This document shows positions 738 through 63,247 of a stretch of 64,000 nt of DNA, piece after piece. The notes under the pieces are model-generated. The model saw nothing but the letters and a program-made list of their open reading frames with translations, was not told the origin of the DNA and ran no database searches. Both the position numbers and the translations under genes were made by a program. Source of the DNA: Ostreococcus lucimarinus (taxonomy: Eukaryota); the NCBI GenBank assembly GCA_000092065.1, contig CP000600.1; one strand, given 5' to 3'. The first letter of the stretch is position 1. Every line of letters begins with the position of its first letter.

Positions 738-3700
738 TCAGTTCGACAGCGACAGCAGTAGAGCGGTGCCGCGCTTGATCCACTGCGATGGGTCGACGCC
801 GCCCGCATCTAGGTCGACCATCGTGACGAACGACGGGCGCTCGCGCGTCCCCGTCCTGCGACCGTACATATACAGCGGCGCTTGATACGTGACGTTCGAC
901 GCGGACGCTTTGTTCTTCCGCTCCGTAGGTTTGAAGTGCATCACGGGCATTTTGACGATGAGTTTCATGGTGTCCGGTTCACATAAGCACTTTTTCTCGT
1001 GATTCCAACCCGCACCTTCCAGGTAGAGATCTCGAACGTAGACGCCGTCCTCTGGCGATTGATCGCTGTCGCTTTCGTCGACGATTGAGAATGAAAACGA
1101 GAGCGCGTCGATGGCGATGCCGTCTCGTCGCGCCGTCATCTGGAGTACAGACGTCAGAAAGCACGTCGGATACGTAAATCCGCCCAACCAGTAAGTCTTG
1201 GGATACGTTCCGTGTCCCCACGCGGAGAGCTGTTCGACACGACAAATCAAGTCGAGCGTCCATGAAGTCAAAGGCTTGAGAGACGGATACGCCTTGAGAA
1301 ACGCAGCTGGGACTTTGTTTGCCGCCAACGCATCGTACACGTCATCCAGCTCGCTCGACATCAGAACCGTTCCATTTATGCCCTTGCGAAGTCGTTGCAA
1401 AGTGAGGGAAAGCGTACCCAGTAGCGCGTTGTAGCGCTCGATTTCTTGGAGCAAATTGACGTTGAGAGGGCTCATGTCTGTGCTTTTTTTCTGCGCGATC
1501 GCTCCGTAATCCAGCGGTTTGGGAATCGTCTCGAGCATTTCGCCGATAACTGCGAGCACGTTTGCCTCCATTTGGGCGGCGGCGCTGGAACTAGAACTCG
1601 CTGTCGAACCGCCGTCGCAGACTTGAAATTTAGCGCTCGCGCTAAGAATGGCTTCGCTTTCCGCAATCATGTAGGAGATGTCAGCGTTTGGATGCTGCCC
1701 AAAAGCGTCGGCTTGATCACTGAGCGGAAGTTTGTTCACAAACTCGCGATGATTTTTGAGTTCATTCGTATTCGACGGGATACAATACACTTTGCCGCTC
1801 GGGCCTTCGCACAATTCGTACGCCGCTTCCTCTCGCAATACGTCTTCGCAAAAGAATTGCAGCAGATACGCTTTAATCACGCGTCTATCGATTTCGTCGG
1901 TCACGCGTCCGCCGTAATTTGCTTCGCCGATTAAATATCGCAACGCATCCCAGGGTGTTTCTTCGTAGCCATCCAAATACGATTTAAGTAAATCGTCAGA
2001 GACGGAAAAATCCGTGTCGTTGAAATCGTACGGAATGTTTAAACCGAGAGTTCCGAACTTTCTACGCTCTAGCAACAGTGCATGGAAGAACGATAACGAA
2101 AACAACAATCGACCATATTTGGTTTTGTTCGCGCATTGCGCGAAAGATTCTTCCGAAACGCAAGTGCTATACAGTCGCGCTAAATTCGCGCGCAAACCTT
2201 TTGGCGGTTCCGTCGTCATTTTCAGACCGCGTTGGAGAATCGCCAGCGGGAACGCGGGAGTCGGATTTGAGGATAGCCAAAGTCTAAAGTTTTCGTGCGG
2301 AGCTTCGCTATCAAAGTCTTCGATGATTTCTTGAAGCTTTGGCAGCCATGAAATCATGAGGTGGCAGTTAGCGAGGAACACCCAGTGGCCTTCCTTTCTT
2401 CCGCGTTCGATGAGTTCGGTCGCAATCGAAGCTTGCCCCTGTCCGAGAGCGACGGTGAACAGCTTGTCGCTCATTCCTTTGCTAGTGGCCAATTGTCTCA
2501 AGTTTGCCACGGGATCGACGCCCGCACTCAAGACAAAGATACACGGAACCTCGCACGCTGAATCGAAATAAACTTCATTCAAGTTGAGCACCGGCGGATC
2601 GACGAATTTTGCGCCAAGATTATCCGCAACAAACTGTCTTATCGCGCTTTCCACACGGTCTAAGCGAAGCGCGCGCAAAATCAAAAGTTTTTGAAGTGCG
2701 CTGAGACTCTCACCCCACGCGCCAGGCAACGCTTGCGTCTCTGGCTTTGAATGTCGATACCAGACTCGCCACTCGTCCGCGTGCATTTCATTTATGGAAG
2801 TTGGAAGGTCTGAGAGAGCATCTTCAAACGCTCGAGCGAGCGCGACGACGTTCGACCACTGATCTGTACTCAACCACGCGCCCACTTCAGCGCGCATGAC
2901 CACTTCGTGTTTCTCGCGCACGCCACCGGCGCTTCCCCGCACGAAATATTGCCACTCAGCCGAAGGTATCGCTCCTTCTTCTGATTGAATGCGAACGCAC
3001 ATTTGTAAGCTGAGAAGAAGTTTATGCGACTCAAATAAGCCTCTGGAGGTGTACCTGTACACGGCGTATGTGTGATAATCGTTCAAGATGGCCAGTCTTT
3101 CGTTGACGTCGACGCTATCTTCGTCCGCGTTTTGCCGGCGCGACTTTGTGATCGACGCGTCGAACAAGCTCGTGTATGCATCCAAGCTAAACTGGTACAT
3201 TGGATCTATATCGGCCAGGTTGTATAACGTAAAGTACAGAATCGTCGCTCGCTTCGCCACAGGGGCGTAAGCCGCAGCTGCGTTCTCAATTTCCACTCCG
3301 GTGGTTTCGGCGACTTTTAGGCTCGCCGTGACTTCCTCACTTGTATTTTTTGAGCGCGTTAAAGAATCGATGAGCTCGATATTATCCAGCAAAGATCCAG
3401 AGGCTCTGCTTAGTAAATCCAAAATTAGGTCTTCGAGTTCACTGAGCTTCCGTTTACCCCGCGCAACCTTTACGACGAGTTCATTCTTTTGCGCGTCGAG
3501 CTCCGGCCTCTCGCGGCGAACGACTAAATCTCTTAGCTGTGCATTCAATCCTTGTTCCTTCACGGTGAAGTTGGTGACGGCGAGCTTGGTGCTCACTTCT
3601 GGCGTGTAGTGCGGATTCATCATTTTTGTCGTGAAATATAGTCGGAACTTTGGCGAGTAATCCAAATCTTTGTCGCCAAGTTTCACAGTTACCGAGCCGC

Positions 3701-6700
3701 CCTTTTTTATGAATACTTTCGCCACGATGTTTTCCAGAATCGGATCTATCGTTTCTTTCACATCCTGAATGAGCACAGGAACGCCGAACTGAATGCCGTG
3801 TTCAACTTGTCGCACCATATCAGGCGCGTGTAAAGTTGTGACGATTAAACCATTCGCCGACTCCATCGATTTGATCCATTTGTTTCCTTGCCCCTGCGGA
3901 TCGATGAGAAGCGGCCATCGATTACCGCGAGTGACGATGACGGCGTTCTCGGTGCTAAACGAATCGGCTGGTAAACCTTGAATATTCCAGTCTCGCACAT
4001 CGGAAGGATTCGCGAGAAAACTCGCAAAGTCAAACTCCAAGGTGCACGGAATCGCCATCTCCTTCAACATTGGCATCCAACAATCCGTCACGAGCGCCTT
4101 GCGATACTCTGATGGAAACGCCCCGGCGTAACTCATGAAAGCTGCGGCAATGCACACATCACCCGGAAGTCGCTCGATCTGCGACTCAAAGTCTTCAATC
4201 GATTTCACCCATCTCTTTTTCTCACCGGATAATCCATCGACTAACGCCTCGGCTCGTTCGAGTTTGAGCTCCAAATCTGCGAGTTCGTTTTCCAACGACG
4301 CCTTATTCGACGCAGACTTTTCGTAATTTTCCTTCAGCGCGGCGACTTTCGCCATCACTTCCGCCAAGTTAGCTTGTGTGAGCGCGAGTGCGTCCTGCTT
4401 GCCTTTGAGCTCGTCTTGTGCTTGCTTGAGCATTAATCTTTTTGGCGCAATTTCCCGCGCGACGTTTCCGTACGAGTACATGGCATGCACCCACTTGCAC
4501 AACCCCTTTGCGGCGTTGGAGACTTTCCCGATGACGTCAGGCTGATAATCGGGATTGTTCACAAACTTTGCGATCTTCGTCAGCAAGCTGTCGACGAGCG
4601 TGTCCTTGTCGAAGTTCAGCAATCGCTCCAAGAATCCAGAGTCGCCAAGCTGCTTCTTCGACTCATCCCATGTCGTCGGCCGCTTGAGTACGGTGAGCAC
4701 ACCCTTTAAGCACAGTTCCACTAGGGCTGGAGGTTTAACGTAAGACTTGAGTTCACCCATGTCCTTTTTCGTCAAAACGTTCAAAGCTGCCTCTGCTTCT
4801 TGGAGCGCAGGCAACGCCTCGTCAAGTTTTAGTTGGCACTCGTCGGCGATTGCATTCGCCTTCTTTGCCTCAACCTCTATGCGCTCCGCCTCCGCGCTCA
4901 CGCGCATACTTTGTTCGTCTGCTGCGCGTTTGTCTTGGACGATGACTTTAAGCAATTCTTCGCAGTCTTTCTTTGCCTGTGCGACGACTGCAGCCTTGTC
5001 CTTGCACACGCTCTGCATTTCACGAACTTGGACTTCTGTTTCCGCGAGCTTGGTCAAACCACCTCGAAGCTTTGTAATTTTCGCGTTGAACTCGCGCTTC
5101 TTTTCCACCATAAGTGCTCTAAAAAAGTTGACAAACTCGATGTAGTTCGTTGGCGTGACGTACATCTTGCGCTTAATCGCATTAAACATTTCATCCGCCG
5201 TCGAAACCGTCGATGCGTGAATCATTCCAAAAATTTTGCACAAGTCCGCTTTCACCTTCGCATTCACGTCGTCGTCTCGTAATTTCTTCATCGCGACTTC
5301 TTCCAACGCGTCAACGGGCCAATCTTTGAACCAATTAATCGTGCAGCAATTAACCAACCCCGGGAACATTCTCGTTCGCTCGCGAAACGCGTCTCCAATT
5401 GGCGACATGCACAAGACGATGTGAAGATTTTGCATCACTCGCTCCATGAAGAATGCGAAAAGCTCGTCGTGAGTCACCGCACGAATACTCTGTGCTTTTG
5501 CGATCTTGCGCATATCCTCGCAAATCGCGCTAATTTCATCCTTTGCAAATAAACCTGGTATTTCCCCAGACGTCAACGCGTTGTTCACGTCCTCCAGAAA
5601 AGTCTCTTTGACGATTTGCGTGTCATCCAACACGAACACCGTAGGCTTGCCGGCGACTCCTGTTTGACGATACAGTGATTTGAGATCTTCCCTGAATTCG
5701 AGCTGCTTGTAGTTCTTCGTGATCTCGATTGAAAATGATTTCATCTCGGCAACGTAAGCAGCGAGTCGAGCGAGCGATTTGCGACCGCTTCCACCAACGC
5801 CCACAAGCATCGCGTGTCCGCGAGGTTGAGTCAAGACACGGTGTATTCGACAAACGTGCATTATTGCGTCGTTGAAAAGTACGAGATCCATAGGCGCGTT
5901 GCCCGGTTCCAATCCGTAGTCTTCAAGCTTTTCTGTGAGAAACTCTTTCAAGGCCGGCGCGTCGACGACGGCTTCGTACGGCGGAACATCTAAACCTTGG
6001 CGCATGAATGATACGAATGGATGACATTCATTGAGTTTCTCGTCGACTTCACTCGCGACAGACGTCGTCGCACCCGTCGAGAGCACCTCATTCCACGAGA
6101 CTCCGAAGTGTAGTCGCATGTTGGTGTCGATTTGCCTCCTGAGCCACGACGAATCGTTGACATCCCAAAGACGATCACCAAAGACACGCAAGTTTTCGTG
6201 AATCCACAGTTGCAAGATGGACTCTTTCGAGTCGTAAAACTGTTTTGTAGCGCGAGTGACTCCTTGAATGACTTTTGCGAGATCGCGAGTGTTGAACAGA
6301 TAATGACTCTTCGTCGGAGTCGGGAGAAGTTCGCGAGCGAGGGAGTTGTACACCGCTATGGACGCCTTGGCAATAGTCGTGCCGATCGATGCGATCGATT
6401 GGTCGAACCCACCCTGCGTTTCCCCAAGAATTGTGCCATAAATACGCTCAAGCTGTGCGTCGGATGGATCCACCATGTTTAGAACCGCAAAAATGGATAG
6501 AACACGCTGCGAGAACGGATTTCTGCCGCCGCCCGGGGGCGCCATCGCCGCGAGAAGCTTCATATCACTGACGTGTGTTCGCTCTTGCTTCGATCGGTCA
6601 TACCAAAACCCATTGTCATGCCATAATTTTAGCAACTCGAGCGGAGGGATGAAACCAAACTCGCTCTTCTTCGGCATGTTCAAATCGTCAATTGCCAGGA

Positions 6701-9700
6701 TGAGCTTTCGACCGCCGGGAGGCGCGAGGCTTCCTTTTGAGCGCTTCTCAAGCTTACCTTCGATTGTTTCCTGAAGCGAATTTGAGCTCGTTTGTGCACT
6801 GAATGTTATTCTACTTCCAATGTATCCTTCTGGTAGCTCGGAAAGACAAGAGTCTACCACCATTGATTTACCCGCGCCGACGTTACCGACGATGAGAGTG
6901 TTCATGCCGGCTTTGAGAAGTAGCGTCGCTAGATGCTTTGTACGGACGGAATCGACGGTGGGAATCATGATCTTGAAGAACGGCGTGTTTTCGTGAGGTA
7001 AATGATAGGTAGGTATCTTCTCCACCCAAGGCACGAACGCACGGCGCTCCGCGTCGTAGTAAAAGTCGAAGACAGTTGTGTCCGTCGGCGCCGACGCCGG
7101 CGTGTGCGGGAACAGCTTCAAAGGCATTATACGGTGAAGCATTGCGTCGAAACGTAAGCGGCTTGCGTGATCAATTGACCCTCCTATCGACCAGACTATA
7201 CAAAACACAAAAATAGGCTCTACGTCCCCGACGCTCTGGATGTGGTGCGCATCGAACAACGTCGTAAACTGATGAATGCTCGCTAACTCATCCGTCGCCA
7301 CGGGCTCTCGACATTTTGAACGCTTGAACCCCAAAACTTCGTCCATGTACTTGTCCATGCAGTTAGACAGCGCGTCTTCTATGTCTACATCACTGCGATC
7401 TCTATTTTTTCGTTCACATCGCCAGCTCGCCACGTACGGCTGCCAACCAAGATCTTCGACGTTGAAATAAATCATTCCAGCTCTCGAGACCGTCGCTGGC
7501 GAAGCCTGCGACAGATCTTCGACTTCAAACAAAATTGAAACTTGCGGGCTCATCATGATTCGTTCGCCCGAAAGCAACGTTAAAAGTTTATTGTCGTCCA
7601 AGAGCGTATTCATACTTTCAATCCACAGCGTATCGACGGGCCCGTCCATGAGAATCCATTTCTGATTCGCCGATTCGTCTTTGCACACGTTTCGCATAAT
7701 TTTGGCCAAAACTCCGTCAGACCATTCGTGTGTTGCTTCATCGAATGACCCGTACAGTTCGTCGTTCGACAACGCGAGTGGGTTGATTGGATACACTTCG
7801 ACATTTTGGAAATCGCCTTGAACGCCGCTTTGTTTCAAGCGCGACATGGCCTTGATCAGAATTTCTCGCGCCCGAGTTTTGCCCGAGCCAGTTTTACCGA
7901 CAATCATGTTACCGTGTCGGGCCGATTTGCAATCGAAAATTTGCACAATCTTGGAAATCCATGCGTCCACTGGTTGCAAATTGTTCAGTCGGCACTCCTG
8001 GACGAGTGCCTCTCGCAGAGTAGCCGAGTCCTCATGCGGCGCGTTGACTTCAGGGAACAAGTCGTTGAGAAGAGCCTTGAATAGTGGAATATCAATGTAC
8101 ACGAGCTTTGGAATAATCAGGTCTCTCATCGCGTTGAATAAGATCAATTGTTCGTCGGCTTGCGGAGCTTGACGCTTCTTCGCGCCAGCGGCTCGAGATA
8201 TTGGAATGATGAAAGAACGCAAGGTGTAATCGTAGTGATCTTGCTTACTGAGCTGTTGCTGACTGAGCTCCATGATTGCAACCATTTTCTTGGCCAGCGG
8301 TTTCGCGTTTGTGAAGCCTTCGCTGAACATCATGATCTCGGCAATCAAACAAAAATCTGGAACCATCATTGACACTGGCCTCACGATTGCTTTGAGATTG
8401 TCGGGCAATTCGGCGCGACCGGCGTAGCCTGGATTCATGGTGACGAAGACACCGCATGACGGTATCAAGCGAATACGCTGACCTTCAAAATCGAACATCT
8501 TCAAGTTCTGCTTCACGGCGGCCATGACGACGCTAATTTGTGTCGCCACCACTGACAGTACCTCCACCGTGATACGGTTAAATTCGTCCAGACACGCCCA
8601 TGCGCCAGTTTGCGCGAGCCCACTAAACATCTTACCCGTCATCTTGTAGTCTACGCCATCCGAACAATTGAATACAATCACGTACCGCGCTAAAGCCTTG
8701 CCAAAATCTTTCACGGTTTCTGTTTTACCAGTTCCCGCCGGTCCGAGTGGGTTTCCGCCTCGACGCGTAAACATAGCGGCACCGAGCGTCATGTAGCAGC
8801 GATCGGTAAGTGGTGTCACAACCAGGCGGCCATTGTTACCTTGGTATTCATATCCATAGTCGAAAACACTGAGCACTTGCTTCACAGTGCAATGCCTCGT
8901 CTCGCGATCCCAATAAAATCGTAACTGTGACACCCACTCAAAATCGTTGGGAGAAGAGCATCCGGTCTTGATGAGTTTTTCTATCGCATCGCGCGCGTGT
9001 ACTTCGATAGTGATCAATGCCGTCACTTTCTTGCGAGTCACTTTGTCGAGTGGTGTGCGCGTAAGCTCAACAAGTTTATTCAAGTATTGAATCCATTTAC
9101 GCCGTAACTTTTTCAGCGCCTCCTTCACGTTCTCCGGATCTCGAAGCGCCCTCTCGCACTCCATCGTCCACGAAATGCAACCAGCGGTAATCAACATCTG
9201 TCCAGGATTGTCTTTCACCCATTTATCTTTTTTGATTCCCTTCGCGCGGCACTGCTCGAACGTGCTCGCCAAATGTGTCCTTGTTGCGGAGTACATCGCC
9301 GCCTCGACTGTGTTCAGCCATTCCTCCGGTCGGCCCTCGGTGCGGATAGGATTATCGAACGGGATCGTTTCGCCGTCAGGAGAAGTCATTGCGACAGATT
9401 CACAATGTCTTCGACCGGTCAAGGGATCGGGAGCGTACATCTCTAACTTTTTAATGCCCTCAAACATCCCCTTCAGATGTGGCTGGATGTTCTGCGGTTC
9501 CTTCGCTTGTCCCAAAATTTGCAGTAAATCGTCGTTGCTGAGGAAATAAAAGCGCGGAAACATCTGGCGCTTCGACTCAAGGTAATCATCGAGTGACTTT
9601 TGTATGCGCTCGAGATTCGAATCCATTGCGCTCAGCTCATTGAGAAGAGACACGTCTGGGGTGTCGCCAATGTCGGGCGCGCGCATCGCCGTGCACGCCA

Positions 9701-12700
9701 AAACGACGTTGCTCGTCTTGTGCATTTCTTGCATGAGCTTGATAAAACGCGTATTAATCGTGCCAAACATTTCCGTTTCACTAGGAAGCTGACGCGCGAT
9801 GTCTTCACTGCCAATAAAGATATTCTCCAAGTACATCCACGCTAGTTGAACTTTGAGCACCATCTCGACGACGTCATTTACTACACCGAGCGTCTTTTCC
9901 CACGACGTAATTGTGCGCTCAAAGACGGAGAAAAATTTGCTCGCTTTTAAAGTACTCAGAGTTACGGTATTGTCTTCCAATGCGGTAAATATATCATCTG
10001 CACTTCTCAACTTCATCACGTCGTCGCGCCCTTCCTTGAACGGACCGGTGTCGAGAACAACGTTTGTCCAGACGTCGGCGATGCCGCGCAGCGTATTCTC
10101 CACGGATAATTCCTTCGTAGCATCCGTGCTAATTTCGGAAATGGCTTCGGCGTAATGGTCCAAGCCAAGTTCAACGACTTTATCCAGAGTGAAACCTTCG
10201 CTTGTGGGATCGAATTGCTTGCCACATGCCTCCATGACGAGTTCCCAGTGTCGTCGACGAACCGCCGGATTACGCATGTCAACGATGAGCGGCATGATGC
10301 GCTTGAACGAATCAACCGTATCTTTCAAACTGATCCAAGTTCCCCACTCCTTGACCTTACCTCGCCCGAGCTTGGTGATTTGTTTGTACAAAAGAGTAGC
10401 GCCGTTTTCCATGGACTCGACATCTAGGTCATTAAATTTACCATCCTTCCAACCTTCGTACAAGTCGTTCCATTCTCGCACCACTCGCCAAACCATCTTG
10501 AGTTGTTCCAAGTCGGCTTTTAATTCTTCCATATCGACCAGTGTGGGTGGAGCGAGATCTTCAAATACAACCAAACCGTTCAGTATCACACGCAGTCGAT
10601 GATCAAACTGTTCGATGACCTCATCAACGCCCGCGATAAACTCCCACGACTTGTCGCACGCGCGTTTCGCGCACGCCGGGTGCGTCTGCATCGGCGCCAA
10701 ACGGTCGAATTTCACTTTATACTCTCTCGCATCTTTTTCGAGTTGCACGATTGATGTTCGCAGTTCATTCTGAAACACATCTTTTGTCGCATCGAGGCTT
10801 GACTCGATCTTCTCTAGCTGAAACTTGAACTCTTCAAACTTGTCATCGATGGACGCCAAGCGCTGAGATTCCGTCTCCGTGACGTCTACGAATTCGTTCA
10901 AAATACGAAAACTATCGCGCGGCTTGACGAATGATGCAGGAACAGAGTCAACGTTTGTTTGTAGTTGCTTGAGTTCGCTCACGTGCTTGACGAGCTCATT
11001 TATGTCACTCGGTGGCTGTTCGAAACGGGCGACACTCATTTCAAAGTATCTCATAACGTCGTCGATTTCAGTCGCCGCCTTGGCGCGTAATTCTGAAATC
11101 ATGCCTTGCACGTTATTCTGAGCTAAAGCCAAAAGACTTTGCTTGAGATATCCACATTCGATTCTGACGAACCCGATCACATGCGTGTGCTCTTCACTTC
11201 TGACGTCCTCCATCGACTCCTGCACGCGATGAATGCGGGCTTCAATCGCGCTGTTGTCGCTGACGTCGACGGCGTTTTCTCGCCACAAGTGGAAATAGCG
11301 CTCCTCCCAACGTGCGGCAAATCTCATCAAATCTTCGGCGATGTCTTTCACCGAGTTTGTGACACTCGATCTTACGCGCGAAATCATATCCCGGTTATCA
11401 CGCAGCAATCTATCTTGAATGGACTCGTTCAGCGGAGATATTTGAGGCACGGAGCCGTACGCATCGAGCGCGGCGTCGAAAACGGTGTTGATGGTTTCGC
11501 ACAATTGCGTGGTTTGCGGTGAAGTTTCGACTCGCATGGTGCCAACATCGCAGGATGAAAGGTTCATGCTCATCAGCACGACTGGTTTCAATGGAGCGCA
11601 GTCAGACTCCACTCGGCCCATCGTGAGATGCAAATGAGATAGCGTGCGCAACAAGACCTTGCGCAATGCACGAACGACGGCGTCTTCAATGTCCTTGATA
11701 TATGCGATCCACGCTTCACTGGCGGTGTCAACGTCACCGATGCTCTGTCGCTGATGTGAAGTGAGATGTAAGATAGTCGCACTTGTTTCTCCGAACTTCG
11801 AGCGAATATGAACGGTTTCCTGTTCGTAGATGTTCTTAAATTCGTCCAGCGGGTCGACGTGGTCACCTTCCCTGCGCCGTAATGAAACCGCCGAGAGTTC
11901 TTCGAGAATTTCAGTGATGCGCGCAGCCGATCCTCTAAACTTTTCCAAACTTTCACTCATAAACGAGCAGAGTTTGTCCGACTCTGCACAAAAAGCGTCG
12001 ATGGTGGAGATTTCGGAGCGCCATGTCAGCTCTTTTGACGCCGCGGCGAAAAGATTTTTCAAAATATCGACATTTGCGCGGAAAAGACGATTGACGTGCT
12101 TGTCGCGACCGATTTGCCGCAATAACGTGTTGTTCCTTTCGACGAGCGAACTCAATCGTTCGCACAACGCATCATGGGCACAGCGCATACCACCAAACGC
12201 GACTTCTTTGATATTGGCAGGTACTTCTCGAGACATGGATGCGAATCCTCGAGCATCCTCGCACGCAACGCCTACGTCGACGGCGTACGTGATGAACAAT
12301 AACCCATCATCGTCGGCGCGTAGCAAAGGCTGATCAAGGCGCTCTTCGACGTTCATTGCGTTCACATAAACGACCCATTCGTCGTATTTTTCGTTGATAA
12401 AGCGCTCTATTTGTGGAATGGTTAAATCGTACACGGCGAGCAAATCCACGGATTCGGGCAGTTGCGGTAGCGCACCCTCCGCGTGTGCCCTTCGTAACTC
12501 ACCGAAGTCGTTCTCGAGACGATGCAGCAATGTATTGGCCCAGTGCACGGCACCGAACGTTCGAGGCAAGCTCGATTCTATCGGAGGCTTCATCCGATTT
12601 GCGTCAAACTGTCGTTTGGCACACTGCAAATCCTCGGCAAACATAGAGTACGCGCGAGCGGCGCAAGATTCGACTGCGCGAACAACACCATCTCGACGTG

Positions 12701-47764: not shown

Positions 47765-48091
47765 CGCTGCGCGACATCACACCTCGCACGATTGTAATCG
47801 TCTAAAAAAGTAACTCGCGACGTCGCCTCGTCGAGCGAGGCGCGTGACCTCCTCCCCGACCGATCCCTTAACGATAAAAAATAATAATCCAAGAGGGTTT
47901 TGATCCCCCGACCTTCTCCGCGTTCGCGGTGACGCGCCACACTCGAGCGCGCGCGCCGGAGTCTGGGCGTTCGCCGATGTAAAGGAGACGCGCTTCCACT
48001 GCGCCATCGGATCGAGATAGCGCTTTATGTCGTATTATACGACATCATACCAACTAAATGATAAAATTTCAAATTTATCGCCCTCGCGTCG

Positions 48092-49148: not shown

Positions 49149-50816
49149 CTATTTGACGTAGCCGTCGACCTCGGAGACCGGCAGCGCCGGAGAGTTCGGG
49201 CAGTGTTTCTTTACGATGCGAAGTAAATCGATGAGCACCAGTTCGCGTTTCTTTTTCCAAATCTTTTTGCCATAATGCGCGTCACCGTACATGAACAGCT
49301 CGATTTGAACTGAAAGATGGTCGACATCGATCTTCTTGAGCACGCAAAGCGGTGGCTTGTACGACGCGTGCACGTCGGGATGGTTCGTCAAGAAGGTCGT
49401 GATTTCCTCCGTCAGCGCCGGGATGCCTTCGTAATCAGGAATCGCTATGCGAAGCTGCGGTCCGACGAACTCGTTCGGTTCTCGAGAGGTATTGATGACG
49501 TTGGCGCCGAGAAAATAACCGTTCGGTATGGTGGTGACTTTGCCATCCTTGGGGATGAGTCTGGTTTGATACCAACCGATCTCGTCCACTTTATAATTGC
49601 TGACGTCTTTTTCCTTTGAATCTCGATACTTGCCGCCGCCGCCGGTGAGATAAATCTTTTCGCCAACCTTGAACGGGCGCATCACGGCGAGCACCAAGCC
49701 TCCGATGAGGTTACTTATGAAATCTTTCGCCGCCAAACCGAAAGCCAAACCTCCGAGGCCACCGAAAGAGAAGAGAACTTGGGCTGGAATGCCGAACGCG
49801 GCGAGCGTGAGCATGAGCGTGGCGACGACGACGAACGCGCTCGTGAGACGCGTGATGACGAGTTGTAGCGATGCGTCGTATCGTATCGACGGGAAAAATC
49901 TACCGAGTAATCTCGGTCCGTAGTTTTGAATCACCATCACGACCAAAATTCCCGTCGCGAACGTGTACGATCCTTTATCGAAGCCGAGCTTTATGTTATC
50001 CGGAATGTCCCATTCCGTGGATAACTGATCGATCATATCGCAACCGACGTCGAAGGCGTAGCTCAACACGAAGAGCGCTTGAATGAGCTGCATCGGTTGC
50101 CTGAACCAGTCCAGAAACGACCCTCGAAACGTTTTCGGCGTTCGAGAAGGGTTGAGCGCGTTCTTCGCGCGCTCCGCCGCCTCGAACAATTTTTCGCGTC
50201 CTCGACGGATGCACCAGTTCCACGCCACTAGCACCCACACGTCTTCGATGTGCCAATCCTCTTGCGTCTTCGCCTCGACGCGTCCCATGAAATCGCCCAC
50301 CGTCTGCAGGCTCGTCCGCATGGCGTCCGTCGTCGTCTTCCGCACCCTTCCGCGCAGCGCGTCAAACTCATCCAGCGCCCTCATCGCGCCCGCGCGCTTC
50401 CCCACCACCGTCGACGTCTTCACCCGATCCCCGGTTCCCGCGTTCGCCGCTCGCGGCGTCGCGAGCGCGCCCGTCGACGCCGCGAGCGCGAGCGCCGCCA
50501 ACAGCGCCGCGCGCCCCCCCCCCGGCGCCCTCCTCGCGCCGTCCGCGCGCGTCGTCGCGCCGTCCCATCGCGTCGCCGTTTCCTCGCGCTTCTCCCCCGT
50601 CGCCCTCGTCGCGCCGTCGTCCCGCGCCGCGCGCGCGCCGTCCATCGCGCCGCCGCCGCGTCGATTCCCAATCGTCGCGCGTCCCGTCGCGTCGTGCGTC
50701 GCGCGTCGTCGCGTCGCCGTCCATCGCGTCGCGAAACTCGCGCGCGCGCGTCGCGAAACGCGCGCGCGTCCCGTCGCCGCCGTCGTCGCCGTCGTCGCCG
50801 CCGTCGCGCGTCGCAT
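49149..50816 (-). CDS. MscS-like mechanosensitive ion channel (MSL/MSC1-like), plastid-type presequence, about 555 aa
   Basis: FGLAAKDFISNLIGGLVLAVMRPFKVGEKIYL...TTIPNGYFLGANVINTSR is the MscS pore-lining TM3 plus beta domain. The N-terminus MRRATAATTATTAATGRARVSRR... is cTP-like. The ORF's upstream extension (MYTSLRAVRIDR... x3) is read-through of a 99-bp tandem repeat, not coding. Confidence 0.8.
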   Translation of the reverse strand: MRRATAATTATTAATGRARVSRRARASFATRWTATRRRATHDATGRATIGNRRGGGAMDGARAARDDGATRATGEKREETATRWDGATTRADGARRAPGGGRAALLAALALAASTGALATPRAANAGTGDRVKTSTVVGKRAGAMRALDEFDALRGRVRKTTTDAMRTSLQTVGDFMGRVEAKTQEDWHIEDVWVLVAWNWCIRRGREKLFEAAERAKNALNPSRTPKTFRGSFLDWFRQPMQLIQALFVLSYAFDVGCDMIDQLSTEWDIPDNIKLGFDKGSYTFATGILVVMVIQNYGPRLLGRFFPSIRYDASLQLVITRLTSAFVVVATLMLTLAAFGIPAQVLFSFGGLGGLAFGLAAKDFISNLIGGLVLAVMRPFKVGEKIYLTGGGGKYRDSKEKDVSNYKVDEIGWYQTRLIPKDGKVTTIPNGYFLGANVINTSREPNEFVGPQLRIAIPDYEGIPALTEEITTFLTNHPDVHASYKPPLCVLKKIDVDHLSVQIELFMYGDAHYGKKIWKKKRELVLIDLLRIVKKHCPNSPALPVSEVDGYVK

Positions 50817-50851
50817 CGTCGTCGGCGTGTGCGGCGAATCGTCGGCACGAC

Positions 50852-51148
50852 CGACCGACCGGTCTATACGTATGGCACGCAGTGACGTATACATTATACC
50901 ACGCGCGCGCGTCTCTTTCATACCGTTCGAAACGCGTGGTGTATACACGGCGACCGACCGGTCTATACGTACGGCACGCAGTGACGTATACATTATACCA
51001 CGCGCGCGCGTCTCTTTCATACCGTTCGAAACGCGTGGTGTATACACGGCGACCGACCGGTCTATACGTACGGCACGCAGTGACGTATACATTATACCAC
51101 GCGCGCGCGCGCATCGCTTTCATACCGTTCGAAACGCGCTCTGTACGC
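50852..51148. repeat. Tandem repeat, 3 x 99 bp, in the divergent intergenic region between MscS-like (-) and the coiled-coil gene (+)
   Basis: Unit: cgaccgaccggtctatacgta(t/c)ggcacgcagtgacgtatacattataccacgcgcgcgcgtctctttcataccgttcgaaacgcgtggtgtatacacgg. Starts at 50852, 50951 and 51050 (period exactly 99). Each unit carries the palindromes GTATAC (x2) and TACGTA. A 22-bp direct duplicate, gcgcgtcggcacatcgtcgcgc, follows at about 51171-51215. Confidence 0.9.
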
Positions 51149-51398
51149 GCGGCGACGCGCGACACCACCGACCGCGCGTCGGCACATCGTCGCGCGCGCG
51201 TCGGCACATCGTCGCGCCTCGCGTCCGCGCCCTCGACGCGTCGCGGCGCGCGCGCTTCCCGCGAACGACGCGGAGATTCGCGTCCCGACGCGCGTTCCCA
51301 TCCCGGACGCGAACGACCCGCGCGACGATCGCGTCCGCGACTCGATTTGATTTCGACAACGATTTGATTCCGATTCGAATCGCGAATCGTCGCGCGCG

Positions 51399-52745
51399 AT
51401 GCCGACGGCGCGCGCGACGCGCGACGAGGACGCGTCGCTCGTGACGCTCGCCGCGCGCGCGACGGCGGGATCGGCGCGGTCGCGGTACGACGCGGCGCGA
51501 GCGACGCTCGGGATGATGACGGGGGAGTGGGACGCGAGGACGCGCGCGGGGGGGAAGAAGACGACGACGGCGCGAGAGCGAAGACGCGCGACGACGCGCG
51601 GGAACGCGGCGCGACGGGAGGGCGGGAAAGGGAACGCGAACGGTGACACGGGGTTGGGGCCGAATCCGTACGAGACGCTGCGGAAGAAATCGAGCGCGGT
51701 GTTGTTCGAGAACGAAGTCGCGTCGAGCGCGCGCGAGGTGGCGACGGCGCGGCGACGCGCGGCGGAGGAGTTGCGCGCGAGCGGATCGAAGAGAGACGCG
51801 ACGAAGGAGGAGAGGGAGGCGTTGATGCGGGCGGAAGAGTCGTTGGTGAAGGCAGAGAGGGCCGCGCGCGAGGTTGAGCGCGCGGCGAAGGCGGAGGCGG
51901 CGCGCGCGGCGAAGGAAGCGGCGGCGGCTGAGAAAGCCGCCGCGGCGGCATCGCGTTCGAGCGCCGCGCCGTCTTCGTCGTCTTCGTCGTCGAAACGATC
52001 CGCGGTTCGAGCGTCGAGCGACGGAAGAGCCACGGATAACGCGATGGGCGTCGTCGTCGAGGTTGGCAAGTTTGTCCTCCCAGCCGTCGTCGCGTGGTTC
52101 GCGCGTCAGCCGACGGTGAGGAAGCTTCGCACGGATTTGAACGCGATGACGACGGCGAAAATTCGCGCGGCGTTGGAAGCGACGAAGCTGCGCGCGCAAC
52201 TCGTCGAACTACGCGAGAAACTCGCCCTGGCCGAGGCTGAATCCGCCGACGTGCAGGCGGCGTCGGAAAAATTGATGACGCGCCGAAACTCCGTCAAGGA
52301 GGTGAAGTGCAAACAAATGGCGGTCGATCACGTGAACTTGGTCAAGAAGGTTCGAGCCGAAGCCGCGAAGGACGTTTCGGACGCCAAGGCCCTGGAAATA
52401 GGCGCGAGATGGCGCGAAGAAGCGTGTAGACGCATGAAGAATCGCGCCGTAGCCGAGGCGGAGACGCTGCGAGCGCAAATCGCCGCGTTGGAAAAGAAGG
52501 TAGACGACTTGGAGCACAAGCGGCACGCGGAGAACGTCGAGGCGGTAAAGAACACCGTGGTCGGGGGATTCGATAAAATCAAGTCGCTCGCGAAACACGC
52601 GTCGATGAAGATCGGCAAGAAGAAAAATGTGACGGAAGCCATCGAACACTTGGCGCCCCTCGCGGTCGAGGCGTCCTCGGGCGACGCGCGAGCGAACCGA
52701 CGGAAAGCGAAGGGAAAGAGCAAGAGCAAGAGCAAGAGCAAGTAG
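51399..52745 (+). CDS. Coiled-coil protein with R/A/T-rich N-terminus and KSKSKSKSK tail, 448 aa
   Basis: ATG confirmed. Long heptad-like E/K/A-rich segments. TGTAA lies 23 nt after the stop. No specific family. Confidence 0.4.
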   Translation: MPTARATRDEDASLVTLAARATAGSARSRYDAARATLGMMTGEWDARTRAGGKKTTTARERRRATTRGNAARREGGKGNANGDTGLGPNPYETLRKKSSAVLFENEVASSAREVATARRRAAEELRASGSKRDATKEEREALMRAEESLVKAERAAREVERAAKAEAARAAKEAAAAEKAAAAASRSSAAPSSSSSSSKRSAVRASSDGRATDNAMGVVVEVGKFVLPAVVAWFARQPTVRKLRTDLNAMTTAKIRAALEATKLRAQLVELREKLALAEAESADVQAASEKLMTRRNSVKEVKCKQMAVDHVNLVKKVRAEAAKDVSDAKALEIGARWREEACRRMKNRAVAEAETLRAQIAALEKKVDDLEHKRHAENVEAVKNTVVGGFDKIKSLAKHASMKIGKKKNVTEAIEHLAPLAVEASSGDARANRRKAKGKSKSKSKSK

Positions 52746-54236: not shown

Positions 54237-55183
54237 CGTCGCCGTCGACCGCGCGCGTCTCTCGTCGACGCGACGCCCGCGCGCGACGCTCGAAACGTCG
54301 ACGATCCGGGATCGCGATCCGTAACGCGATCCGTGACGCGACACGACGCGGACGCGATACCGATTCATCCATCGATCCATCCGCGTCTCTGATTCGTCGT
54401 CGACGGATCGAGCGTCGCGCGGCGCGTCGCGCGCGTCGTTCGATGCGGCGATTCGCGACGACGCGCGCGGCGTCGTCGCGCGAGGCGTCGACGTCGCGCG
54501 CCGCGAGCGACGCGCGCGACGCGCGACGCGCGGACGTCGAGACGACGCGCGCGTTCGGGGGGGTGCTCGGGCTGCCGACGGCGGCGACGACGCGCGCGAC
54601 GGCGACGCGCGACGGCGGCGACGCGCGACGGAGCGTCGCGGTGACGACGGGGGGATTCGCGGGGGTCGGAGAGGCGCGAGCGCGCGCGGGGGGGGGGAGG
54701 GAGGCGGACGCGCGCGCGAGGACGACGGCGAGCGCGAGACGCGCGGGCGACGCGGGAGACGTCGTCGCGCGAGCGTACGCGCAGTTGGCGCAGTATCCGC
54801 GCGTGCTGTTGCCGACGATGGACGCGGCGGTGTACGTGAACGCGAAGCAGTACGACGCCATCGTGCGGCGGCGGCAGAAGCGCGCGAGGGCGAACGCGAC
54901 GAGGACGCCGGGCGTCGTCAACGCGAAACATCCGTCGCGGTCGGCGCACGCGAAGAACAGGATTCGCGGGAAGAATGGGAAATATTTGACCCGCGATGAA
55001 TTGCTGCGCGGGCTGGGGGGGCCCGAGGGACGGGCGCGCGCGGAGGCGCGCGAGCGAGAGATCGCCGAGCGCGAGGCGAAGCGCGTCGAACGCGCCGCGG
55101 TGCGGGAAGCCACCAAGGCGCGCGCGCGCGCGCAGCGCGCCGCCGCCGACGCCGTGCGCGCGGCGAAAAAATCTAGAAAGTGA
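54206..55183 (+). CDS. NFYA: Nuclear transcription factor Y subunit A (NF-YA/HAP2, CCAAT-binding); 5' end uncertain (ATG at 54206 or 54443)
   Basis: AAVYVNAKQYDAIVRRRQKRAR...NAKHPSRSAHAKNRIRGKNGKYLT matches the NF-YA core (YVNAKQYHRILKRRQARAKLE...[23 protein letters not shown]). The upstream part is low-complexity R/A/T-rich. Confidence 0.7.
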   Translation: MDGWMDGWNRPSPSTARVSRRRDARARRSKRRRSGIAIRNAIRDATRRGRDTDSSIDPSASLIRRRRIERRAARRARRSMRRFATTRAASSREASTSRAASDARDARRADVETTRAFGGVLGLPTAATTRATATRDGGDARRSVAVTTGGFAGVGEARARAGGGREADARARTTASARRAGDAGDVVARAYAQLAQYPRVLLPTMDAAVYVNAKQYDAIVRRRQKRARANATRTPGVVNAKHPSRSAHAKNRIRGKNGKYLTRDELLRGLGGPEGRARAEAREREIAEREAKRVERAAVREATKARARAQRAAADAVRAAKKSRK

Positions 55184-62053: not shown

Positions 62054-63247
62054 ATGGTGCTCGCGACGGCGACGACGCCGACGCCGCGCGCGCCGTCTCG
62101 GTCCGCCCCGCGCGCGGCGTCGCGCGCGACGGCGCGACGATTCGCCGCCGCGCGACGATTCGGCGGCGACGACTCGAATCGACGCGCGCGCGCCGCCGCG
62201 CGCGCCGACGGCGGCGGCGACGCGGCGGCGGACGACGCGCTCGACGCGCTCGAGCTGCTGCGCGCGCGAGGGCGCGCGAGGGCGTCGAGCGCGACGACGC
62301 GCGACGACGCGCGCGCGGCGAGGGTGTGCCTGGTGGGCGTCGGACCGGGCGACCCGGGCTTGCTCACGCTTCGCGCGTATCAGCTCATGCAGACCGCGGA
62401 CGTGGTGCTGTACGATCGATTGGTGTCGAACGAGATCCTGAATCTCGCGCGCGCGGAGGCGCGGATGGTGTACGTGGGGAAGCGAGCGGGGTACCACACG
62501 CGGACGCAGGAGGAGATACACGAACTGCTGGCGGCGTTCGCGGACGCCGGGGCGACGATCCTGCGGTTGAAGGGCGGGGATCCGCTGGTGTTCGGGCGCG
62601 GCGGGGAGGAGTTCGAGTTCCTGCGCGAGCACAATCCGAACGTGCGCGTGGAGGTGGTTCCGGGAATCACCGCGGCGGCGGGCGTCGGGAGCGAGCTCGG
62701 CATACCGCTCACGCACCGCGGGGTGGCGACGTCGGTGCGGTTGTTGACCGGACATCTGCGCGAGGGCGCGGGGTCGCGCGAGGACGCCACGGGCGCGGCG
62801 AGCGATCCGGTGGATTTCGCGGTGACGAGCGCCGACGTCGAGACGACGCTCGTCGTCTACATGGGTCTGGGCACGCTCCCGAAGCTCAGCGAAAAGCTCA
62901 TCGCGAGCGGATTTCCGGCCGATATGCCCGCGGTGGCGATCGAGCGCGGCACGACCGTGGACGAACGTCGAGTGTTTAGCTCCATCGAGCACCTACCCGA
63001 AGCCGCGGCGGCGTGCGAGCTCGTGTCGCCGACGCTCCTCATCGTCGGTCGCACGGTGACGCTCAGCCCGCACTGGCCGTACGCCGCGGACGAATCCTCG
63101 TACGATCCCAAGTGGGTCGAACAGCGCGGCTCGCCGCGCGCGGCCGACGACGTGGACGATTGGCGCGCGTGGCTCGACTTGGACGTCGATTTCGCCTCGT
63201 CGCGCCCTCGCGCCGTCGCGCGCGAGATTCACGTCGACGCGTTCTAG
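62054..63247 (+). CDS. Uroporphyrinogen-III C-methyltransferase (SUMT/CobA-type, siroheme branch) with plastid transit peptide, 397 aa
   Basis: VCLVGVGPGDPGLLTLRAYQLMQTADVVLYDRLV...GKRAGYHTRTQEEIHELL...ILRLKGGDPLVFGRGGEE...VVPGITAAAGV is the canonical TP-methylase fold. The S/T/A/R-rich N-terminal 80 aa form the transit peptide. Confidence 0.9.
   Translation: MVLATATTPTPRAPSRSAPRAASRATARRFAAARRFGGDDSNRRARAAARADGGGDAAADDALDALELLRARGRARASSATTRDDARAARVCLVGVGPGDPGLLTLRAYQLMQTADVVLYDRLVSNEILNLARAEARMVYVGKRAGYHTRTQEEIHELLAAFADAGATILRLKGGDPLVFGRGGEEFEFLREHNPNVRVEVVPGITAAAGVGSELGIPLTHRGVATSVRLLTGHLREGAGSREDATGAASDPVDFAVTSADVETTLVVYMGLGTLPKLSEKLIASGFPADMPAVAIERGTTVDERRVFSSIEHLPEAAAACELVSPTLLIVGRTVTLSPHWPYAADESSYDPKWVEQRGSPRAADDVDDWRAWLDLDVDFASSRPRAVAREIHVDAF

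Follow-up and report, generated by a model that had tools for sequence, protein, structure and literature searches.

A 99-bp tandem repeat upstream of an MscS-like channel gene in Ostreococcus is probably a young minisatellite of variable copy number

Results

Genomic setting of the repeat

The DNA analysed here, called the window throughout, is a stretch of 64,000 nucleotides which begins with a telomere (positions 1-164, 23 copies of AACCCTA) and has a GC content of about 50% over its first 16 kb and of 56-73% thereafter. Its MscS-like ORF shares 62% identity with the mechanosensitive-channel protein of O. tauri and 99% with marine metagenome proteins, and from the telomere and these identities the window was recognized as the terminal part of a nuclear chromosome, from an oceanic species of Ostreococcus other than O. 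tauri. Close to this end, a sub-telomeric sequence CTAACCCTAGTTT is repeated three times (positions 468-507). Also, a complete dynein heavy chain, including a coiled-coil domain of the axonemal DYH2-5-8 type, is encoded on the minus strand by a single ORF of 4499 amino acids (738-14237), which starts some 570 nt from the telomere, within the block of lower GC content (1-16 kb). Ostreococcus is not known to have a flagellum.

The repeat described below sits in the spacer that separates two divergent start codons, ATG 50816 on the minus strand and ATG 51399 on the plus strand. The former opens the gene of the MscS-like channel (49149-50816, minus strand), which encodes 555 amino acids and contains the beta-domain PF00924 of Pfam. 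The latter opens a gene for a coiled-coil protein of 448 amino acids (51399-52745, plus strand), for which no Pfam family scored above threshold. The N-terminal 120 amino acids or so of the MscS-like protein are of low complexity and poorly conserved, and its true start codon is uncertain; if translation starts further downstream, the repeat is farther away from the start site than assumed here. Directly upstream of the coiled-coil ATG, the intergenic DNA has its AT-richest 30-mer region in a GATT-rich tract (GATTTGATTTCGACAACGATTTGATTCCGATTCGAATCG, 51339-51380, plus strand), which may be a proximal promoter or leader element of the coiled-coil gene itself; similar tracts are found in the sister lineage (L002) and in a lucimarinus-like lineage (L013).

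The order of genes around the spacer (trehalose phosphatase, coiled-coil gene, MscS, a gene for a 317-aa protein, Sfi1-like gene) is the same in four Ostreococcus lineages, namely in conspecific contigs, the sister lineage, the lucimarinus-like lineage and O. tauri, and wherever long contigs exist this syntenic block is located about 50 kb from a contig end. In L018 (positions 4480-6110), L002 and L009, the Sfi1-like gene is separated from the 317-aa gene by an extra segment of 1.6 kb with a gene for about 500 amino acids that gave a faint match to Tectonin. The window lacks this segment (at about 47869), which is thus a gene presence/absence polymorphism.

Structure of the array

Tandem Repeats Finder (TRF) reported an array at 50852-51138 with a period of 99, 2.9 copies, 96% matches and a score of 524, the top-scoring non-telomeric tandem repeat of the window and the only one that is not CG-rich low-complexity sequence. 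Tandem repeats at 54455-54692 (129 bp, 1.8 copies) and 62149-62317 (62 bp, 2.7 copies), both with 75% matches, are of this CG-rich type and lie within long ORFs. As had been predicted, the array begins 36 nt from the ATG of the MscS-like gene and ends about 250 nt before that of the coiled-coil gene. Copy 1 (50852-50950), the one nearest to the MscS-like gene, has a T at 50873, and copy 2 (50951-51049) differs from it by one SNP, a C at 50972. Copy 3 (51050-51148) equals copy 2 over its first 60 nt or so; thereafter it has a CG insertion of 4 nt and its tail diverges, the identity being 72% without gaps and 94% over 89 nt with gaps. TRF ended the array at 51138. Apart from two Logan unitigs (see below), this haplotype of copy 3 is peculiar to the window strain. 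The original prediction had described an exactly periodic array with a single SNP between copies. The starts at 50852, 50951 and 51050 agree with an exact period in the window, but other alleles have periods of 100 or 101; similarly, the single SNP describes copies 1 and 2, but not copy 3 with its insertion and different tail.

A 40-mer and a 22-mer taken from the unit each matched the window three times, compared to no match in 100 shuffled sequences. A blastn search of the unit against the 64-kb window gave nothing outside the array except low-complexity CGCGCG matches, in agreement with the earlier statement that nothing else in the window resembles it.

The unit has a GC content of 56%, compared to 70-77% in its flanks, and is rich in TA: all five GTATAC sites and 11 of the 44 TATA sites of the 64 kb are inside the array. 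GTATAC had been thought to occur twice per unit, which is correct for units 1 and 2 but not for unit 3. The second GTATAC coincides with the junction from one copy to the next and is missing in alleles of a single copy and in the last copy of an array, where the sequence is GGTGTACGCG; being confined to copy junctions, it is a product of the duplication and not an ancestral site. Reading the sequence by eye, we noted an imperfect palindrome in each unit (50865-50891, recurring at +99 and +198), composed of TATACGT, a spacer of 13 nt and ACGTATA, which holds TACGTA and TGACGTA and hence two ACGT cores. Next to it, a TATAAT on the minus strand (GGTATAATGTATAC, 50893-50898) is located 82 nt upstream of the MscS ATG and recurs at 50992-50997 and 51091-51096. 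Read towards MscS, the unit contains GCGCGTGG-TATAAT-GTATACGTCACTGCGTGCCGTACGTATAGACCGGTCGGTCG. The two parts of the unit, of 45 and 54 nt, align with each other better than 2000 shuffled sequences, although the phase of this comparison was chosen post hoc; this suggests an older internal duplication, as a lead only.

The predicted flanking repeats were located as well. The sequence CGTCGGCACR flanks the array at 50840, 51177 and 51199 and occurs seven times in the window, compared to 1.7 occurrences expected. The left-flank copy (CGTCGGCACG, 50840-50849, plus strand) contains a 9-mer that stands once on either side of the single-copy allele. The 22-bp direct duplication behind the array (51172-51225, plus strand; 2.4 copies according to TRF) carries CGTCGGCACA twice and is specific to the haplotype of the window, being single in all other resolved alleles.

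Copy number differs among conspecific genomes

Starting from a protein cluster at 90% identity around the best MscS match, the encoding contigs were fetched and their spacers compared. Members of this cluster have 580, 613, 619 or 624 amino acids, and their N-termini differ by whole blocks of 33 amino acids. The DNA that flanks the array in the compared contigs is 96-99% identical to the window, so that these contigs represent alleles of one species or species complex. Two independent assemblies (L007, L008) contain one copy of the unit; two copies are present in L001, L005 (period 101), L009, L010, L012 (a 545-kb contig) and L018, and at least two in L006 (period 100) and L020, where the contig end falls inside the array. 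Three copies are found in the window and in L019, a 78-kb contig with periods of 101 and 99 whose copies each have their own SNPs. In L004 and L011 a scaffold gap within the array leaves the copy number unfixed, and L011 has two copies on either side of its gap. Accordingly, the expectation of a copy-number polymorphism was borne out, with one, two or three copies among conspecific contigs with flanks of about 99% identity.

Whole-unit indels were visible when the conspecific spacers were aligned. The T/C SNP at position 22 of the unit occupies different copy positions in different alleles, and in the lineage of L009 and L018 private substitutions are common to both copies; both observations fit ongoing unequal exchange or gene conversion. 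Also, the edges of the array carry small indels among alleles. Gain and loss of whole units, shuffled SNPs and edge indels together form a pattern characteristic of replication slippage or unequal recombination.

Short-read assemblers can collapse tandem repeats, and individual contigs with one or two copies may therefore under-count. However, a general collapse artefact is unlikely, because SNPs separate the copies at distances shorter than one k-mer and both two and three copies occur among the larger contigs. The exact copy-3 haplotype of the window was recovered in two Logan unitigs from separate read sets, the start of both lying exactly 30 nt ahead of the first base specific for copy 3. 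Logan uses a k-mer size of 31. If k = 31 applies to these unitigs, their common start is a branch point of the de Bruijn graph and the reads hold at least two copies; on this branch-point reading, the window haplotype is real.

The unit evolved in place

The sister lineage L002, whose protein is 93% identical at the amino acid level, has one diverged copy at the orthologous locus, in which CCGACCGACCGGTC and CACGCGCGCGTC alone are retained. Sequence homologous to the start of the unit is present in place in L002, which has neither the palindromes nor the flanking 9-mers, and either lost the palindromes or never had them. In the syntenic spacers of O. tauri (L014, KZ155785.1) and of the lucimarinus-like L013 nothing could be aligned to the unit. 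The equivalent place is taken by (CAACCCT)n in L013 and by CCCTAAACCCTATACCCTATACCCTAG in O. tauri, short repeats that are telomere-like or telobox-like and are found some 75-120 nt before the start of MscS, with a TGACGTG closer to the ATG in both cases. As L002 holds a homologous unit start in place without the flanking 9-mers, the sequence comparison argues for a unit that evolved in situ and was multiplied within this species only. One, two or three copies within the species and a single diverged copy in the sister lineage support the original prediction of a young minisatellite, which had been offered there as the alternative to a cis-regulatory array.

With regard to the first duplication, an exchange between the flanking CGTCGGCAC 9-mers was considered and rejected, since it predicts a junction GGTGTACGCGTCGGCACGACC and a period of 106, whereas the junction GGTGTATACACGGCGACC and a period of 99 were observed; in L006 the junction reads GGTGTATACACGACC. 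A non-homologous or micro-homology event is the probable cause of the first duplication, after which slippage or unequal crossing-over would have changed the number of copies.

A putative promoter module as the duplicated piece

On the MscS side of the spacer the unit is the only TA-rich island, and in the other species the AT-richest island likewise lies some 60-120 nt before the ATG of MscS. The nearest upstream ATG on the minus strand, at 50894, overlaps the TATAAT of copy 1, and a leader free of upstream AUGs (uAUGs) therefore requires a transcription start between 50817 and 50891. This range lies inside or just below copy 1 and matches the start predicted from a TATA-like element at 50893-50898. 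We infer that this TATAAT may serve as a TATA-like core-promoter element and that the duplicated piece would be the MscS-proximal core-promoter module with its adjacent sites, namely the inverted pair of ACGT cores (TATACGT and ACGTATA) and a CCGACC repeat. Every extra copy would then add one TATA-like element, two ACGT-core sites and one CCGACC repeat, and transcripts fired from an upstream copy would carry uAUGs, in frame in alleles with 99-bp units and out of frame in those with 100- or 101-bp units. For other ORFs of the window, most TATA sites were inside ORFs and few were 12-80 nt before an ATG (as at 48036, for the 317-aa gene), too few for statistics.

Such a module raises the question of whether the array is a selected cis-regulatory element. 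In this case the unit would be a transcription factor module, with two inverted ACGT-core sites of the bZIP type and a DRE-like CCGAC repeat, and selection would maintain or vary the copies such that their number tunes MscS expression, for example under osmotic stress. TACGTA and TGACGTA do resemble plant ACGT-core elements (A-box/C-box, bZIP), and the ACCGACC repeat resembles DRE/CRT elements (CCGAC, AP2/ERF). The array shares these core sequences with the plant elements as a resemblance of sequence only, and both CCGAC and ACGT occur frequently when a genome is rich in CG. The location between the ATGs 50816 and 51399, in a divergent intergenic region conserved by synteny, is as expected for a regulatory array. 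The first 59 nt of the unit are nearly invariant over all copies and alleles and its last 20 nt or so vary, but recent duplication and gene conversion predict a uniform 59-nt core equally well. In the window, L013 and O. tauri alike, TGACGT is found in the same orientation about 20-70 nt from the MscS ATG (background: 37 sites in 64 kb), a pattern that was noticed post hoc, and both copies of L009 and L018 have TAACGTA instead of TGACGTA. Similarly, the rare 9-mer CGACCGACC occurs four times in the window, always at this locus, and is inverted in the O. tauri spacer.

The poor conservation of the motifs speaks against selection. The palindromes are absent from L002, the unit cannot be aligned in O. 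tauri and L013, and neither GTATAC nor TACGTA was found in the orthologous promoters of L002, L013 and L014; the only motif common to the unit and the L002 promoter is CCGACCGACCGGTC. Furthermore, the junction GTATAC arises from the duplication itself, and the existence of single-copy alleles indicates that extra copies are dispensable. On balance, we consider a selected array rather unlikely. With single-copy alleles occurring in wild genomes and motif conservation ending at the species boundary, our best guess from the sequences, and the simplest interpretation, is that variation in copy number would be neutral or alter expression mildly.

The repeated peptide is a product of gene calling

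On the minus strand the repeat has no stop codon in the MscS frame, so that the MscS ORF stays open up to 51092 and the array can be read as a repeated peptide of 33 amino acids (MYTSLRAVRIDRSV...), whose opening ATG overlaps the TATAAT at 50893-50898. If this peptide were a genuine N-terminal extension of the MscS-like protein, the open frame, a unit length divisible by three in most alleles and database proteins of 580, 613 and 619 amino acids that contain the peptide would all be accounted for. However, L005, L006 and L019 have periods of 100 or 101, which put the repeat out of frame, and the allelic variants, when placed in the frame of the ORF track, comprise one synonymous and 12 non-synonymous changes, the reverse of the synonymous excess seen in coding repeats. 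In addition, the proteins of the sister lineage, of O. tauri and of the lucimarinus-like lineage lack the peptide, and across the array no stop interrupts four of the six frames, as stops are rare in this GC-rich composition. We therefore regard a genuine extension as highly improbable and agree with the original prediction, which had called the peptide an artefact. Metagenome gene calls P0001, P0053, P0061, P0062 and P0064-P0066 begin inside or beyond the repeat and have N-terminal extensions of 26-70 amino acids, the length of which tracks the number of repeat copies. Given the frame shifts, the variant counts, the orthologues without the peptide and the open frames, the extended MscS proteins of 580-647 amino acids in public collections (compared to about 555) are gene-calling artefacts.

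Mobile DNA, structured RNA and mis-assembly

A piece of a mobile element (MITE or LTR) or of foreign viral or organellar DNA, inserted at this place and then amplified, would explain the odd, TA-rich composition of the unit with its 56% GC as well as the 9-bp direct repeat CGTCGGCAC around the single-copy allele, which looks like a target-site duplication. In contrast to what is known from dispersed elements, no further copy is present in the 64-kb window, a 29-mer scan of metagenome contigs returned two contigs which both represent the orthologous locus, and no terminal inverted repeats are visible. A scan of viral contigs gave zero matches and thus no evidence of prasinovirus origin. Also, L002 holds the start of the unit in place without the flanking 9-mers. 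A dispersed transposon fragment, which had been named as the finding that would overturn a local array, is hence contradicted by the window, metagenome and viral scans, and a mobile or foreign origin is hardly credible.

Tandem small non-coding RNA genes and an assembly artefact have a very low probability, too: plants have tandem snoRNA clusters and mis-assembly is common for tandem repeats, but the best Rfam score was 25.6 bits (gathering threshold 88) and fell outside the array, a permissive E-value added sub-threshold bacterial sRNA noise only, ARAGORN found no tRNA, RNA and DNA folding of the unit gave no signal on either strand (z-scores from -0.84 to +0.69, |z| < 1), independent assemblies are multi-copy, and the suspicion of an artefact raised with the original prediction is countered by the second 3-copy allele (L019) and by the two read sets of the Logan unitigs, which reproduce the copy-3 boundary.

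Discussion

The array upstream of the MscS-like gene is non-coding, non-dispersed and not a structured RNA. Its copies are arranged head to tail with a unit in the range of 10-100 bp, their number differs within the species, and they occupy a single locus within the 64 kb and the metagenome contigs. We conclude with good confidence that it is a young minisatellite (VNTR) of variable copy number, locus-specific as far as the window and the metagenome collection extend, which originated by tandem duplication of an intergenic piece of about 99 bp.

Variable tandem repeats close to promoters have been reviewed for yeast and human genes (PMC3899988; PMC4857002). Like these, the array is a head-to-tail repeat with a unit of the 10-100 bp class within about 300 bp of a start codon, its copy number differs between individuals, and its copies are homogenised relative to the outgroup. 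Unlike the yeast and human examples, it has one to three copies, possibly four or more, and belongs to a picoeukaryotic green alga whose intergenic regions are very short. In land-plant genes, tandem repeats with units of 1-50 bp are enriched in 5'-UTRs and in the upstream 200 nt, according to a study that did not include Ostreococcus (PMC3887541); the array shares the gene-upstream compartment with those repeats but differs from them in its unit of 99 bp. A literature search found no report of promoter VNTRs or minisatellites in Ostreococcus or other picoeukaryotic green algae and nothing on the regulation of Ostreococcus MscS genes. Genomes of Ostreococcus clade B (RCC809-like) with telomeres are part of a long-read study (PMC13558084).

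A more far-reaching possibility is that, in wild Ostreococcus populations, the rapidly mutating copy number would set the expression level of an organelle-targeted MscS-like channel in the manner of a dial. This seems doubtful to us, more so than selection on the array as such. If it were true, alleles would differ in channel dosage or in the N-terminal isoform by means of the added TATA-like and ACGT modules and uAUGs, and allele frequencies would track salinity or the osmotic regime.

As a young minisatellite, the array provides a marker by which strains of an abundant oceanic Ostreococcus can be told apart. It also cautions against MscS entries in databases whose N-terminal extensions are spurious products of metagenome gene callers. 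If copy number does affect expression, the locus would offer a tractable case of repeat-driven regulatory variation in a eukaryotic genome that is among the most streamlined, and one that could be genotyped directly in long-read ocean metagenomes.
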